From IMG/VR virus record IMGVR_UViG_3300050500_000527: 27,405 bases of DNA; one strand, written 5' to 3'. This stretch comes from a virus (Duplodnaviria > Heunggongvirae > Uroviricota > Caudoviricetes). The translations under genes were made by a program, and so were the position numbers. Position 1 is the first letter of the stretch; each line of letters opens with the position of its first letter. Shown piece after piece: positions 19,578-23,882 of this stretch. The notes beneath the pieces were generated by a model. It saw nothing but the letters and a program-made list of their open reading frames with translations, did not search any database and was not told the DNA's origin.

Positions 19578-21344
19578 TTAGGCGCATTCCCGCTGACCAT
19601 CCGGGCCGATTATACATTGCATATTCTCGTCCGGCTTTACCTCAGCCTTCTTGAGAATGCCGCCTTTCTGACCTGTGGGCCGAAAAGTTGTGCAGCTCTT
19701 GCAACCCGACTCATAAGCTTCCAGGTAAATATTCTGGAACTGCTCCCAGGTGACATCGGCCCCGACATTAATCGTCTTAGAAACGGACTGATCCACCGCG
19801 CTGCTCACCGCTTTCAGCACGTCAACATGCTGCCTCAGCGAAACCTCCTCGATGGTCCGGCCTGTCACGTCCAGCTGGCCGAAGCCATAATCGGTGACGC
19901 GGGTCGGGACCGGGTCCGGCGAGCTCGGAAAACGGATATCGCGCACCATTTCATGCTGGAAAACTGGCTCCAGGCCAGAGCTCACGTTGTCCATCGTCAG
20001 CGAGATGGTGCCCGTCGGCGCAATGGAAAGCAAGTGCGAGTTGCGAATACCGTGCTTGGCAATCAGCGCCTTGACATCCTCCTCCAATTCTTGAACATGA
20101 CGCGAGCGGGCAAATTTCTCAGCGTTGTAAAGCGGAAAGGTGCCTTTCTCCTTCGCCAATTGGGCCGAGGCCCGATAAGCATTGTTGCGCAACACCTGCG
20201 TAACCTTTGCGGCAAAATCCACAAACTGCGGCGAACCATACGGCCAGCCCTGAGCTTCGCCCGCATTCGCCAGGCCCGTAAAGCCCAGGCCAATCCGGCG
20301 CTTCGACTTCATCTCCCGCTCCTGCTCATAAAGCGGATAGGTGGAAGCTTCGATTACGTTATCCATCGCCCGGACCACCACCGGGATATCTTCGCAGAAC
20401 TGACCCCAATTGAATGTATAGCGACGGCCCGTAACGCTGTCTTCCGTTGCCTTAATGCCAATGCGCAGGGCCGTGGGTTCCAGATATTTAGCCAGGTTGA
20501 ACGAGCCCAGCAGGCACGAGCCGAAGGCGGGCAACGGCACTTCACCGCAAGGGTTAGAGCCGATGATCTCTTCGCAGTAATTCAGGTTGTTATCAGCGTT
20601 GACGCGGTCGATGAAGAACACGCCCGGATCGCCCCAGTCCCAGGTGGAACGCATCATCGTCTCCCAGAGTTCTTCCGGGTCGACTTCGCCATGCGGGGCG
20701 CCGTTGTGCTTCAGCTGGAACGGCCGCTTGGCTGCTAGGGCTTCCATAAAGGCGTCAGTAACCTGCACGGAGAGGTTAAACCGGGTCAGGTAATTCTCCC
20801 GGCCCTGCTTACACCGGATAAACGCCATGATGTCCGGGTGATCGATGCGCATCATGCCCATCTGGGCGCCGCGCCGCTCGCCGGAGGACGAAATCGTACC
20901 GCCCGCGGCGTCGAACATCTCAATAAACCGCATCGGGCCGCAGCTATGGCTGCCGAGCTTCTTGATCAGCGCCCCGGCCGGGCGCAGTAGCGAAAAATTA
21001 TAGCCAATACCGCCGCCCATGCGCAGCGTGGTCATCGCTTCCGTGAGCCGCTTCATGATTGAGCCGTCGCCTTCCAAGAGGCTGTCCTCGATCGGCCCAG
21101 AATGGTAGCAGTTCAGTAGCGTGACATTCTTCGCGGCGCCCGCGCCCGCCCAGATACGGCCCGCGAAGCTAAAGCGCTGGAGGCCGAGCATCTCGCGCAG
21201 GTCGTGATAGTGGCGGGAGCTATCGCTCGTTGCGCTGGCTACACGATTGGTGGCTTCGCGGAAGGTTTCATATGGCGCGCGATATTTCGCGGCATGCACG
21301 GCGTCGGCCGCAGGCGTGACTGGTCCAAACTTAAATTCCGACAT
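19578..21344 (-). CDS. nrdJ: Class II (adenosylcobalamin-dependent) ribonucleotide reductase
   Basis: TLLNCY, GGGIGYNFS, RRGAQMG, SNPCGEVPL, CLLGSFNL, RRIGLG, SIAPTGTISL, VDQSVSKTIN, C-terminal Cys. No small-subunit gene nearby. Confidence 0.92.
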   Translation of the reverse strand: MSEFKFGPVTPAADAVHAAKYRAPYETFREATNRVASATSDSSRHYHDLREMLGLQRFSFAGRIWAGAGAAKNVTLLNCYHSGPIEDSLLEGDGSIMKRLTEAMTTLRMGGGIGYNFSLLRPAGALIKKLGSHSCGPMRFIEMFDAAGGTISSSGERRGAQMGMMRIDHPDIMAFIRCKQGRENYLTRFNLSVQVTDAFMEALAAKRPFQLKHNGAPHGEVDPEELWETMMRSTWDWGDPGVFFIDRVNADNNLNYCEEIIGSNPCGEVPLPAFGSCLLGSFNLAKYLEPTALRIGIKATEDSVTGRRYTFNWGQFCEDIPVVVRAMDNVIEASTYPLYEQEREMKSKRRIGLGFTGLANAGEAQGWPYGSPQFVDFAAKVTQVLRNNAYRASAQLAKEKGTFPLYNAEKFARSRHVQELEEDVKALIAKHGIRNSHLLSIAPTGTISLTMDNVSSGLEPVFQHEMVRDIRFPSSPDPVPTRVTDYGFGQLDVTGRTIEEVSLRQHVDVLKAVSSAVDQSVSKTINVGADVTWEQFQNIYLEAYESGCKSCTTFRPTGQKGGILKKAEVKPDENMQCIIGPDGQRECA

Positions 21345-21454
21345 GGAATTAGCTGCCCCCGAATTGGTGAAACACTATAGGTAGGGCAACTAATTTAACG
21401 CAGGATTGCGGCTAAGTACGTGCAGAATTGTGGGTTTTAGGCGAAAAAGTGAAA

Positions 21455-21607
21455 CCTATTTGCCGCGTTTACTGCGAGTGCCTCACGCACGTATACGGTC
21501 CGGTTAACGGCGATGTCGGCCAAGCAAGGTCCGACCCAATTTTAGCGCTTGCCGGGTTTTACGCGGCGGCATCAGGGTCCCAGGTCGCGACGAGCGCGGC
21601 AAATAGG
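21455..21607 (-). ncRNA. Candidate structured non-coding RNA (153 nt)
   Basis: Perfect 13-bp closing helix CCTATTTGCCGCG/CGCGGCAAATAGG; internal stems GTCGG/CCGAC and GTGC/GCAC; U-rich tail. Confidence 0.45.
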
Positions 21608-21617
21608 CCAGGCTAGT

Positions 21618-21842
21618 TTATGGCCGCTGCTCCCGGTCGACTAGCGCTTTCCGGGCCGTGGCCAAAGGCAACGCAGCGATAGCGAGATCGGCGTGCACCG
21701 TCCAAGGGTTGCCCAGCTGGGCGGCGATCAGCCGGTCGCCGCGGGGCGAACGCAGGCGCTTTTCAATATAGAGCCGCGCCCTAAGGACGAGCATCTGCCA
21801 CTTCCAGGCGTAGTCCTTCTTATTCGTGAACACGGTAATCAT
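21618..21842 (-). CDS. Hypothetical protein
   Basis: Likely start ATG 21842 (MITVFTNKKDYAWKWQ...); the longer track ORF overlaps tRNA-Gln. Confidence 0.55.
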   Translation of the reverse strand: MITVFTNKKDYAWKWQMLVLRARLYIEKRLRSPRGDRLIAAQLGNPWTVHADLAIAALPLATARKALVDREQRP

Positions 21843-21923
21843 GAGTGTTTCCGCCTCGCAATATGCGACCAAGCGACCGTCGGGCGCTGTGTACACGGAA
21901 AACGGGAAGATCAACACTGGTTC

Positions 21924-21997
21924 TGGTTCCCCCTCGAGGATTCGAACCTCAGTCTCAAAGTCCAAAGCCTTGTGTCCTACCACTAGACGAAGGGGGA
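21924..21997 (-). tRNA. tRNA-Gln(UUG)
   Basis: TCCCCCT/AGGGGGA acceptor; CAAGG-CTTTGGA-CTTTG anticodon arm; TTCGAAT loop; encoded CCA. Confidence 0.93.
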
Positions 21998-21998
21998 G

Positions 21999-22072
21999 AA
22001 GACGCGGCGGGATTCGAACCCGCGATCGCTCGATTAAAAGTCGAGTGCTTTAAACCACTTAGCCACGCGTCC
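21999..22072 (-). tRNA. tRNA-Lys(UUU), no encoded CCA
   Basis: GGACGCG/CGCGTCT acceptor; CTCGA-CTTTTAA-TCGAG; GCGGG-TTCGAAT-CCCGC. Confidence 0.9.
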
Positions 22073-22076
22073 AAAC

Positions 22077-22151
22077 TGGCTCCCGCGGCTGGATTCGAAC
22101 CAGCAGTCACCCGGTTAACAGCCGGGCGCATTACCATTATGCTACACGGGA
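22077..22151 (-). tRNA. tRNA-Asn(GUU)
   Basis: TCCCGTG/CGCGGGA acceptor; CCCGG-CTGTTAA-CCGGG; GCCA end. Confidence 0.95.
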
Positions 22152-22154
22152 AAA

Positions 22155-22308
22155 TGGTACTAGGAGAGGGATTCGAACCGACGACCTTCCTCATGTGTGG
22201 TTTCCGTGGATGGGTTCGAACCACCGACCTCAGCGTTATCAGCGCTGCGCTCTACCGGACTGAGCTACACGGAATAACGAGGACGCTCTACCTCTGAGCT
22301 ACCCTAGT
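22155..22308 (-). tRNA. Split Val(UAC)-like tRNA gene (halves 22275-22308 and 22155-22195) interrupted by a 79-nt insert
   Basis: ACTAGGG/TCCTAGT acceptor plus ACCA; GCTC/GAGC D arm; TCCTC/GAGGA anticodon stem. Removing 22196-22274 gives loop GT-TAC-AT. T stem has 2 mismatches. Confidence 0.7.
22198..22274 (-). tRNA. tRNA-Ile(GAU), nested in the split Val-like gene
   Basis: TTCCGTG/CACGGAA acceptor; CAGCG-CTGATAA-CGCTG; GGTGG-TTCGAAC-CCATC; ACCA end. Confidence 0.95.
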
Positions 22309-22314
22309 GAAATT

Positions 22315-22389
22315 TGGTGCCGGGAGAGGGAGTTGAACCGACGACCTTCCCCTGTAAACGAGGACGCTCTACCACTGAGCTACCCCGGC
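22315..22389 (-). tRNA. Atypical tRNA (Val-like paralog; 7-nt loop GTTTACA, positional anticodon UUA)
   Basis: GCCGGGG/TCCCGGC acceptor plus ACCA; TCCTC/GGGGA stem; G32 and C37 non-canonical; T stem has 2 mismatches. Confidence 0.65.
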
Positions 22390-22395
22390 AATAAT

Positions 22396-22471
22396 TGGTA
22401 CCACGGGTTAATTTCGAGTTAACGACCTCCGGTACTTCAGACCGGCGCTCTACCAACTGAGCTACCGTGGC
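22396..22471 (-). tRNA. tRNA-Phe(GAA) with atypical T arm
   Basis: GCCACGG/CCGTGGT acceptor; CCGGT-CTGAAGT-ACCGG; GTTAA-CTCGAAA-TTAAC; ACCA end. Confidence 0.85.
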
Positions 22472-22478
22472 ATTCTTA

Positions 22479-22569
22479 CCCACTACGACCGCGGTCGCAT
22501 TATCCTGCGTGCCGCAGAGGCTGGCTTAAGTTTTTAACCGGATCCGAGCCGTCCCCCTGCCGTAGCGGG
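22479..22569 (-). ncRNA. Candidate structured non-coding RNA (91 nt)
   Basis: 11-bp closing helix CCCGCTACGGC/GTCGTAGTGGG (2 G-U); internal GGCT/AGCC and CTGCG/CGCAG stems; 7 nt upstream of tRNA-Phe. Confidence 0.45.
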
Positions 22570-22574
22570 CCGGG

Positions 22575-22979
22575 TCAGTTTAGCTGCTCCGGCGCCGCCG
22601 TAAATGCGGAATTGTCTTGGCCCGGCCCGCGCCACCAGCGCACCATCGCCTCGGCCCGTTGACAACAACCGCCACAGAGGTCTGACGGGCCATCATACCT
22701 CAAGTCAAAGCCCAATTCCAACCAGATTAGCGGCCATATCGGCGTCAGGATCACGCCGCGCCAGAATTTCCCTGTGAGCATACTCATCCTCCGTAAACAC
22801 CCAACGCCGACTAGCTGACGTGAAACGCGCTCCTGTTCGACTTCAGCAAGATACTCAGAGATTACCTCGTTTTGCAGAGCGAGCGCTGTGCGGATATAAT
22901 CGCCGGGCGTCTGGCCCTCATAGAGCCGCTCGCGAAACTTCGCCTCGATAAGACGTTGGAAATCTTCAGGTTTACGCAT
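22575..22979 (-). CDS. Hypothetical protein within the tRNA array
   Basis: 134 aa ORF filling the gap between tRNA-Glu and the structured element; hydrophobic segment; internal GGAGG-ATGAGTATG possible second start. Confidence 0.55.
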   Translation of the reverse strand: MRKPEDFQRLIEAKFRERLYEGQTPGDYIRTALALQNEVISEYLAEVEQERVSRQLVGVGCLRRMSMLTGKFWRGVILTPIWPLIWLELGFDLRYDGPSDLCGGCCQRAEAMVRWWRGPGQDNSAFTAAPEQLN

Positions 22980-22984
22980 TTAAG

Positions 22985-23061
22985 TGGTGATCCCTGCGGG
23001 ATTCGAACCCGCGACCTTTGGAGTGAAAGTCCAATATCCTGGACCGCTAGACGAAGGGACC
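22985..23061 (-). tRNA. tRNA-Glu(UUC)
   Basis: GGTCCCT/AGGGATC acceptor; TTGGA-CTTTCAC-TCCAA; TTCGAAT; ACCA end. Confidence 0.95.
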
Positions 23062-23064
23062 AAT

Positions 23065-23138
23065 TGGAGAAATGGACGGGACTTGCACCCGCTTCCACGG
23101 CTTTGCAGGCCGCCGCATAACTATTCTGCCACCATTCC
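23065..23138 (-). tRNA. tRNA-Cys(GCA)
   Basis: GGAATGG/CCATTTC acceptor; GCGGC-CTGCAAA-GCCGT; U73 discriminator plus CCA. Confidence 0.92.
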
Positions 23139-23149
23139 TATAAAAGGGC

Positions 23150-23329
23150 GGAATGGGTAGCCTCTTACGGCCAACGAACACCACGACGACGGCGTGGCAT
23201 CCCCTACCAGCGCAACTGATACATAGACTTACGGGGCGAGTCCGTCGCAAATCCCCCGCCTAGCGTCTTCAGTGTTGTTGCCAGCCAGCTTTAACGGCGA
23301 TCACTCCGTAGTATCACTGGACCCATTCC
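23150..23329 (-). ncRNA. Candidate multibranched non-coding RNA (180 nt)
   Basis: 9-bp closing helix GGAATGGGT/ACCCATTCC; long-range CCAG/CTGG and TGATAC/GTATCA; hairpins ACGG/CCGT, CTGGC/GCTAG, GCGGGG/CCCCGT, GCCAC/GTGGT, GGCC/GGCT. Confidence 0.5.
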
Positions 23330-23339
23330 TGAAACGAAG

Positions 23340-23882
23340 TTACCCAGCTTTTTCCGCTTCGGAAATGCGGAAATGTCTTGGCATGGGATAACGGTGTAGG
23401 GCGCCCAGGGCAGCGCACTCGCCCTCACCCGCACGCCGAGCCCCTTCCCTCGGGCCGTAGAGGAAAACGGCACGGTAGAGCCGCTCTAGGCGCTCCGGAG
23501 TCCACTTGCGGCGCGCGCTGAGCGGCCGGGAAGGCTTCCGCTCGCGGAGGTCGTCGTATAAGCCGCGGAAAGCGTAATTCTGAGCCATTGCCTTACAGGC
23601 TGAGGGTGTTCGGTAAGTGCCGACATAAAAAGCGGCACCCGTACAAGTTAAGCCCGCTTCCGCGGCTTCCTCGAGGCGAAGAAGTTCTTCGGCGCTCCAC
23701 GCCGTCCAAGGCCATCGCCGCGGCACCCAACCGGCCGCCAGCTTCTTCTCACGTTGCCGACGCCGATAATCCGCATTTTTGATTGTATCCGCAGCACGTT
23801 GGCAGGTAATACAACGCGGGCCGGAGAAGAACTTCATCGGCCCGCCGCATTCTGGGCAAGGTTTTGTAGAATAACCCTGCAT
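23340..23882 (-). CDS. Zn-finger protein with two GcrA/Myb-like HTH repeats
   Basis: ATG 23882 coupled to the helicase TAA; CPECGG...CITC; WSAEELLRL...GLT...A and WTPERLERL...G...A...G...AALGALHR resemble the GcrA N-terminal HTH. Confidence 0.65.
   Translation of the reverse strand: MQGYSTKPCPECGGPMKFFSGPRCITCQRAADTIKNADYRRRQREKKLAAGWVPRRWPWTAWSAEELLRLEEAAEAGLTCTGAAFYVGTYRTPSACKAMAQNYAFRGLYDDLRERKPSRPLSARRKWTPERLERLYRAVFLYGPREGARRAGEGECAALGALHRYPMPRHFRISEAEKAG

Follow-up and report, generated by a model that had tools for sequence, protein, structure and literature searches.

Interrupted tRNA genes are known in the form of ribozyme introns, archaeal and eukaryal protein-spliced introns, and split or permuted genes, and group I introns occur in the anticodon loops of bacterial and phage tRNAs. 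We know of no interrupted tRNA gene whose intervening sequence is another working tRNA with its own mature ends, and full-text searches of the literature found no description of nests of unlike tRNAs in phages. In T4, the precursors of tRNA dimers are separated by RNase P. Here, we analyze a phage locus at which a tRNA-Ile(GAU) gene lies inside the anticodon loop of a tRNA-Val(UAC)-type gene, as had been proposed from the letters of the DNA and its open reading frames (hereafter, the sequence-only reading). The locus is located in a stretch of 27,405 nt (the window), which is part of a 60,434-nt IMG/VR record (IMGVR_UViG_3300050500_000527, Caudoviricetes) covering about 60% of the phage.

Group I introns interrupt tRNA genes at the same position as in the nest, but the 79-nt insert lacks a ribozyme core: E-value scans with Rfam match it only to tRNA, which sets it apart from this intron class. 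In archaeal bulge–helix–bulge and split tRNAs (reviewed in PMC4090602), the anticodon loop is likewise interrupted and stems hold the halves, and a ligase is needed, as it would be for the nest if its halves are rejoined. In the nest, however, a 7-bp helix is flanked by 4 unpaired nt on its 5′ side and 9 on its 3′ side; the inner acceptor helix begins directly at the 5′ junction, and 6 unpaired nt separate its end from the 3′ junction. Inspection of the junctions revealed no bulge–helix–bulge, so the locus is not a spliced or split tRNA of the archaeal type. Moreover, the intervening sequence is itself a tRNA, the 60-kb record encodes no splicing endonuclease (PF01974), and a bacterial host would not be expected to carry one. 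Nor does the locus look like a gene-replacing cassette or a homing-endonuclease cassette of the SegB type: an Ile gene stands in a Val-type gene, the insert consists of a tRNA and 2 nt, and neither a GIY-YIG nor an HNH gene was found in the 60-kb record. A reverse transcriptase gene is likewise absent from that record.

A broken anticodon loop that is resealed by a phage RNA ligase is known from T4, in which Pnkp heals and Rnl1 seals the break made by PrrC, and ligases of the Rnl5 type (DraRnl and NgrRnl) seal nicks with 3′-OH and 5′-P ends (PMC1807946, PMC4408790, and PMC5397189). For the nests, such sealing is putative. In T4, the ends produced by a host nuclease need healing. The phage of the window gave no Rnl5 match in about 88% of its genome. 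In tRNA-dependent lysogeny (Guerrero-Bustamante and Hatfull 2024, PMC10865867), an integrase places the prophage within a tRNA gene of the host. There, as here, inserted DNA that carries a tRNA gene destroys a tRNA gene, but the two genes are of the same isotype and the insert is a whole prophage, whereas in the nest both genes belong to the phage, their isotypes are unlike, and the insert is a single tRNA. In the val and lys polycistrons of Escherichia coli, abutting tRNAs standing side by side are freed by RNase P and 3′ trimming (PMC4176162 and PMC7049720), and RNase E is able to cleave directly at the CCA or slightly past it (PMC5291269). By analogy, the release of tRNA-Ile from the nest is likely to follow this polycistronic route of RNase P cleavage and 3′ trimming.

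Results

Anatomy of the nest and its operon

The nest lies in a tRNA operon with the order (5′ to 3′) Cys, Glu, a 134-aa orphan ORF, Phe(GAA), a paralogous tRNA with a UUA anticodon, the nest, Asn, Lys, and Gln (Table 1). The spacers between the tRNAs on the 3′ side of the 134-aa ORF are 0 to 9 nt long, and CCA is encoded by most of the genes. A ribonucleotide reductase (RNR) gene is located about 580 nt beyond the Gln end, and every gene in the region is encoded on the minus strand. The 134-aa ORF could be assigned to no family and showed no nuclease-like fold. No further tRNA gene was found in the rest of the genome sequence examined, and this is the only tRNA operon detected in the phage. 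The tRNA-Phe(GAA) gene (22399–22471, minus strand) was found by Rfam (61 bits) but not called by ARAGORN; its A/U-rich T arm has an unusual loop, and the tRNA has G37. Structured-looking elements head and trail the array (23150–23329 and 21455–21607), neither of which matched an Rfam family at an E-value of 0.01 or better.

Table 1 Features of the nest in the window, followed by nests in other lineages on their own contigs
Feature	Position	Strand	Inner tRNA	Outer tRNA	Basis or fit
tRNA operon	21924..23138	-			ARAGORN (seven tRNAs) and Rfam (eighth, Phe)
Outer Val(UAC)-type tRNA, 5′ half, 34 nt	22275..22308	-			Sequence read; ARAGORN tRNA-Val(UAC) once joined
Inner tRNA-Ile(GAU), 77 nt including encoded CCA	22198..22274	-			ARAGORN; Rfam tRNA
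Two extra bases CA, from inner CCA to outer C36	22196..22197	-			Sequence read
Outer tRNA, 3′ half, 41 nt, ending in CCA	22155..22195	-			Sequence read; refolded after joining
Paralogous tRNA	22315..22389	-			ARAGORN "tRNA-Stop(tta)"; Rfam 46.7 bits
Lineage B	L338 2025-2177, L211 4972-5124		Phe(GAA)+CCA, 76 nt	Perfect Arg(UCU), split 34/35	Exact
Lineage C	L235 6109-6259		Asn(GUU)+CCA, 76 nt	Perfect Lys(UUU), split 36/37	Exact
Lineage D	L303 3022-2871		Arg-like, 6-nt loop, +CCA	Val-like	1 extra nt
Lineage E	L311 489-641		Without encoded CCA	Met/Ile2(CAU)-like	2 extra nt
Lineage F	L332, L340, L379		His(GUG) or Asn(GUU)	Loop one base short	-1 nt
Lineage G	L398 4995-5145		Ile(GAU)+CCA	Loop untidy	About 3 extra nt

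The inner tRNA-Ile(GAU) is canonical, with a 7-nt loop CUGAUAA (U33 and a purine at position 37), A73, and C4–G69. It scored 68.8 bits with Rfam RF00005 (E = 2e-14), against a gathering threshold of 29, and is thus a tRNA by these measures. A 79-nt unit comprising tRNA-Ile(GAU), its CCA, and CA (22274–22196) splits the outer, phage-specific tRNA between nt 35 and 36. The 5′ half of the latter contains the acceptor 5′ strand, the D arm, the 5′ strand of the anticodon stem, and the loop nucleotides G32, U33, U34, and A35. The 3′ half contains C36, A37, and U38, the 3′ strand of the anticodon stem, the variable loop, the T arm, the acceptor 3′ strand, A73, and CCA. The flanks read as the sequence-only reading had described them, and both ARAGORN and Rfam call the tRNA-Ile(GAU) at 22274–22198.

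When the 79 nt (22196–22274) were removed and the flanks joined, ARAGORN refolded the product as the 75-nt tRNA-Val(UAC) cloverleaf that had been predicted, with the loop G-U-UAC-A-U. Its acceptor stem has 7/7 pairs (one of them G–U), its D stem 4/4, and its anticodon stem 5/5, and two mismatches (U–U and C–C) are present in the T stem. The junction of the joined halves would read ...CCUCGUUACAUGAGGA... Retention of the CA gives a joined loop of 9 nt, or of 7 nt (UUACACA) when the stem register is shifted, and the result is an odd 77-nt fold that is called "Cys(ACA)". In its interrupted state, the outer tRNA was called neither by Rfam nor by ARAGORN, including with the intron option of the latter.

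Comparison with the neighbouring paralogue

The outer halves are homologous to the tRNA immediately upstream (22389–22315), with 10 substitutions and a 1-nt shift of the loop register; in BLAST alignments, 28/29 bases of the 5′ half and 31/36 bases of the 3′ half are identical. The loop of the paralogue (GUUUACA) is register-shifted, giving the anticodon UUA with G32 and C37. The U–U and C–C mismatches of the T stem are common to both genes. The acceptor stem of the paralogue differs in sequence from that of the outer gene and is fully paired. All seven substitutions that fall in stems keep pairing, including three G–C to A–U double changes in the acceptor stem, in agreement with the compensatory changes noted by the sequence-only reading. 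The chance of all seven being compensated in unconstrained sequence is approximately 4e-4 by our rough estimate. As judged from these alignments, the compensated changes show selection on pairing after the duplication, which may have preceded or followed the insertion. A UUA anticodon would be ochre-reading. TAA is the commonest stop in the phage and ends 24 of the 45 long ORFs, so an efficient UUA suppressor would read through most of the phage genes.

The nest in independent assemblies

A MEGAHIT contig from ENA (L050, k141) is 100% identical to the window from 21300 to 23400, i.e., over 2.1 kb around the array. In the Logan assemblies of SRR5585586 and SRR5582390, the spacing between the flanking ORFs is 610 nt, where an insert-free allele would give 531 nt. 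Another ENA assembly has 2 SNPs relative to the record across 17 kb, indicating that the phage was sampled more than once. The nest was present in every assembly examined, and because independent assemblies agree in sequence or spacing, it is not a chimera, as the sequence-only reading had argued. The tRNA-Ile gene within the anticodon of a Val-type tRNA gene is thus a genuine nested pair. It is very improbable that the arrangement was created by assembly or sequencing from parts of two paralogous genes placed on either side of tRNA-Ile. The outer gene and the paralogue do have a repeat of up to 29 nt in common, but they share no exact 31-base stretch, and the outer acceptor strands fit each other rather than the paralogue. 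The arrangement also recurs with identical sequence in the independent MEGAHIT contig and with the same spacing in both Logan assemblies.

The uncultured phage has a genome of about 100.6 kb, which is represented in ENA by contigs of 100,595 and 100,719 nt that carry one sequence in different circular permutations. Its accessory region includes a short tyrosine-recombinase gene (211 aa; L388 2761–3396, minus strand). The IMG/VR record is rated 96% complete despite covering about 60% of the phage.

Predicted processing and the search for a ligase

Cleavage by RNase P, and on the 3′ side by RNase E or Z, yields 3′-OH and 5′-P ends. Such ends suit ATP-dependent ligases of the Rnl type, whereas RtcB needs a 3′-P or cyclic phosphate and a 5′-OH. 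RtcB, which had been offered as a possible sealer, therefore does not fit the ends expected here, and it is absent from the 60-kb record. The genome search suggested along with it, for RtcB, Rnl, and Pnk, returned none of RtcB, Rnl1, Rnl2/Rnl5 (PF09414), or an AAA_33-type kinase in that record. PF09511 gave no match there either, in a search that lacked a ringing control and carries little weight. A profile built from 123 Rnl5 homologues was run against the six frames of about 88% of the genome and gave no match, while the positive control scored 522 bits. The gene tables for most of the remaining genome list no member of the ligase family; about 2.5 kb lies outside both the DNA and the tables. 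These results speak against the ligation of the halves in this phage that the sequence-only reading had considered.

Cofolding predicts that the two halves stay annealed (-24.5 kcal/mol), and in the full precursor the acceptor pairs of the outer tRNA have predicted probabilities of 0.56 to 0.98. The nested double cloverleaf has an energy of -41.8 kcal/mol, compared with -49.1 kcal/mol for the predicted minimum. tRNAs often fail to come out as the predicted minimum, and this difference was therefore not counted against the nested fold.

Relatives of the phage

The nearest phages have RNR genes that are 76 to 79% identical to that of the window's phage, and the same place in their genomes holds different tRNA sets and various tRNA-like RNAs. 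IMG/VR and the JGI metagenomes yielded a single relative with 78% RNR identity, and four relatives (77–79%) were reached via an RNR search. No homologue of the outer gene or of the paralogue was found in relatives with 76 to 79% identical RNR, and INPHARED contains no close relative of the nest. The inner tRNA-Ile has a free-standing homologue (80% identical) in one relative (G001); the T arm and the acceptor 3′ strand are common to the two genes, and the anticodon arm differs, being that of Asn(GUU). A 17-mer from the outer 5′ half had 0 matches in IMG/VR, and a 16-mer from the outer 3′ half matched unrelated tRNAs only. Across 185,579 species genomes, the restored Val anticodon arm had six chance matches, all of them outside tRNAs. 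A match to the Agrobacterium phage Atu_ph07 reflects generic tRNA similarity, and this phage was rejected as a relative.

G001 encodes an Rnl5-type ligase with a PF21189 OB domain and PF09414 (L056 1018–2034), which adjoins a NUDIX gene. Of the 120 listed homologues of this ligase, whose identity to it is about 49% or higher, none is on a contig with a size matching the window's phage.

Several tRNA-like elements were seen in the related phages. G001 has a 184-nt tmRNA-like RNA (L002 422–605; 29 bits, below threshold) and a 114-nt tRNA-like gene (L002 1485–1598) with normal acceptor, D, and T arms, in which an extended arm of about 53 nt replaces the anticodon stem–loop. A YrlA-like match was found in a related phage at L051 2026–2164.

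The same layout in other phage lineages

IMG/VR was scanned for two D-arm motifs too close together for neighbouring genes and followed by a T loop; the completed scan gave 93 loci. At each, the ARAGORN tRNA at the second motif was excised, and the joined flanks were refolded. A locus was assigned to the class when the anticodon loop of a refoldable tRNA is split by an unlike tRNA and the insert ends within about 3 nt of the latter's mature 5′ end and CCA. The window was recovered as the positive control and belongs to this class of unlike-tRNA nests. Beyond it, the D-arm scan revealed eight loci in five lineages, and a scan from the T-loop side added a sixth (L398), so that at least seven lineages including the window are represented (Table 1). 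The requirement for D-arm motifs samples only a small part of tRNA space, and the true number of phage nests is probably much larger. When the downstream flanks were exchanged from one locus to another, a junction-spanning tRNA was obtained in 2 of 275 trials, compared with 9 of 55 real arrangements. Wider excision windows rescued no further nests, and a T-loop-pair scan found no new one. One candidate (L149) was discarded as a spurious fold adjoining a mini-helix.

All nests pair unlike tRNAs and lie within tRNA arrays, and several were seen in more than one sample. No cultured phage carries the nests of L235 or L211. The exact fit of lineage B holds for L338; L211 has CCC in place of CCA. 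The question whether the same nesting exists in related phages, raised by the sequence-only reading, therefore has a divided answer: the outer gene is missing from the relatives with 76 to 79% RNR identity, and nests of unlike tRNAs are present in other lineages. The decay of the outer gene in relatives that it had also envisaged was not shown, since there the gene is absent altogether.

The phages of lineage F are approximately 99% identical apart from one replaced segment. Their inner tRNAs (L332 1702–1776 versus L340 8130–8204 and L379 1316–1390) have three differences, all in the anticodon arm, which switch the tRNA between His(GUG) and Asn(GUU); one of these differences converts a G–U to an A–U stem pair. 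Both forms have A33 in place of U33. In the nest of lineage G (L398), one copy of a 7-nt direct repeat (AACATTC) precedes the insert by 5 nt and the other follows the inner CCA immediately, which hints at an origin of that nest by DNA-level slippage.

At approximately 20 viral loci (among them L317, L320, L319, L336, L355, L323, and L354), a tRNA 5′ half abuts a complete tRNA at the distance of an anticodon-loop break, and the 3′ half is degenerate or absent. In some of these, the fragment is shorter and consists of the acceptor and D arm. Some pair unlike tRNAs, and in others a single tRNA has been partially duplicated. L317 has the appearance of a nest in decay, and L320 retains the 5′ half only. 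The existence of such half-only loci indicates that outer genes of the nest type decay or become truncated in phage arrays.

Ligases in nest-bearing phages

The presence of a ligase was judged in the five nest lineages with at least 50 kb of sequence, including the window's phage. A PF09414 ligase is encoded in three of them: lineages B (a weak match of 26 bits), E, and F. The ligases of E and F have the Rnl5 build, and that of E matches the Naegleria ligase NgrRnl (E = 7e-57). The ligase gene of lineage E (phage G006, L384 994–2115) lies between genes for an RlaP RNA-repair nucleotidyltransferase and a metallophosphatase, a neighbourhood (L384 29–3002) that looks like an RNA-repair cassette. 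No such ligase was found in lineage G or in the window's phage (about 88% of the latter genome was profiled), which carry two of the less exact nests. Among control contigs, namely viral contigs of at least 50 kb from the same D-arm scans, 12 of 43 have a ligase (5 of 33 at 50–210 kb). We estimate a binomial p of about 0.03 to 0.14 depending on the base rate used, and the association of the ligase with nests is suggestive.

Discussion

Here, we propose a fate for the nested transcript based on the anatomy of the locus and the known enzymes of tRNA maturation. RNase P would cut the operon transcript at the 5′ end of each tRNA, and the 3′ ends would be matured back to the encoded CCA, releasing tRNA-Ile. 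The outer tRNA would be cut between A35 and U1 of the inner tRNA and again near CCA-CA, giving a 34-nt 5′ half that ends in 3′-OH and a 3′ half that starts with 5′-P. Maturation of the inner tRNA-Ile would thus necessarily cut the outer tRNA inside its anticodon; the sequence-only reading had reached the same conclusion, and its logic holds.

With slightly better than even confidence, we favor the reading in which tRNA-Ile is the working product, the outer gene is disrupted, and its halves are left unrejoined in this phage, probably now serving only as leader and trailer of tRNA-Ile. The outer gene would then be a fairly young relic. This reading is favored because no ligase was found, because the 3′ junction has two extra bases and the T stem is weak, because the break separates the two main identity bases for valyl-tRNA synthetase (ValRS), and because no relative conserves the nest and decayed forms exist elsewhere. 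Several observations stand against it. All stems of the outer tRNA except the T stem are intact, its own CCA is kept, and the stem differences from the paralogue are all compensated. The layout occurs in six other lineages, two of which have exact canonical loops, and ligases are encoded in three of the five assessable lineages. Furthermore, useless DNA is usually deleted by phages.

That the tRNA acts as an intron in this phage, with RNase P and a cut 2 nt past the inner CCA excising tRNA-Ile and an ATP-dependent ligase sealing the halves, we consider unlikely. One segment of transcript would then give both tRNA-Ile and a working tRNA-Val(UAC), and the ligase would be either a host enzyme or one that escaped detection; sealing by a host ligase is conceivable. 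GUA accounts for 11% of the Val codons of the phage, which encodes no other Val tRNA, and this would give the rejoined tRNA a use. An exact cloverleaf appears once the 79 nt are removed, the halves are predicted to anneal with well-paired acceptor strands, and the layout recurs, with the Arg(UCU) and Lys(UUU) loops restored exactly in L338 and L235. The ligases of the nest lineages, at a higher frequency than in either control set, and the Rnl5-type enzyme of G001 point in the same direction. On the other side, no ligase was found in the window's phage and the statistical association is weak. The cut would have to fall exactly after CCACA, and the break lies between A35 and C36, the main identity bases for ValRS. 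The T stem is also weak, and the nest is conserved in no relative.

Still less probable is a non-decoding role, for which the halves would be kept as a paired leader–trailer clamp that stabilizes tRNA-Ile maturation or sets its timing, or as a nicked tRNA-like duplex that acts as a decoy for host defenses aimed at tRNAs. In the precursor, the outer acceptor strands are predicted to pair, and related phages carry tRNA-like non-decoding RNAs in the same region. Phage tRNAs are reported to counter anticodon nucleases (PMC10264068), which we counted in favor of a decoy. The proposal is nonetheless speculative: no conservation was seen, and the operon's eight other tRNAs do without a clamp. To our knowledge, no anticodon nuclease targets tRNA-Val. 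The stable split tRNA or decoy envisaged by the sequence-only reading found no support in this phage.

As to the class as a whole, the intron-like reading stays alive because the layout recurs in other phages. It is possible, although we hold it doubtful, that in some phages a tRNA serves as the intron of another tRNA, which is excised by the enzymes of end maturation and whose flanks are rejoined by a ligase of the Rnl5 type. Such ligated introns may belong mainly to members of the class other than the present one. An RNA-derived origin of the inserts was considered because their boundaries are exact mature ends: halves could have been ligated to a mature tRNA and the product then copied into DNA. 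The exact boundaries across the class call either for selection on excision at the RNA level or for an RNA-derived insert, and either would be new.

If selection keeps the outer tRNA usable, the nests would represent a new splicing route with no requirement beyond housekeeping nucleases and a ligase that seals nicks. What Rnl5 ligases do physiologically has been described as uncharted (PMC5397189); rejoining by Rnl5, if true, would be a new protein-only route of splicing in bacteria and the first physiological job for these enzymes. Otherwise, a recurrent mutational process would insert units of mature-tRNA size at anticodon loops, and the tRNA arrays of phages would thereby have a new source of turnover. 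In either case, tRNA finders miss the outer genes, so the tRNA repertoires of phages are undercounted or miscounted.
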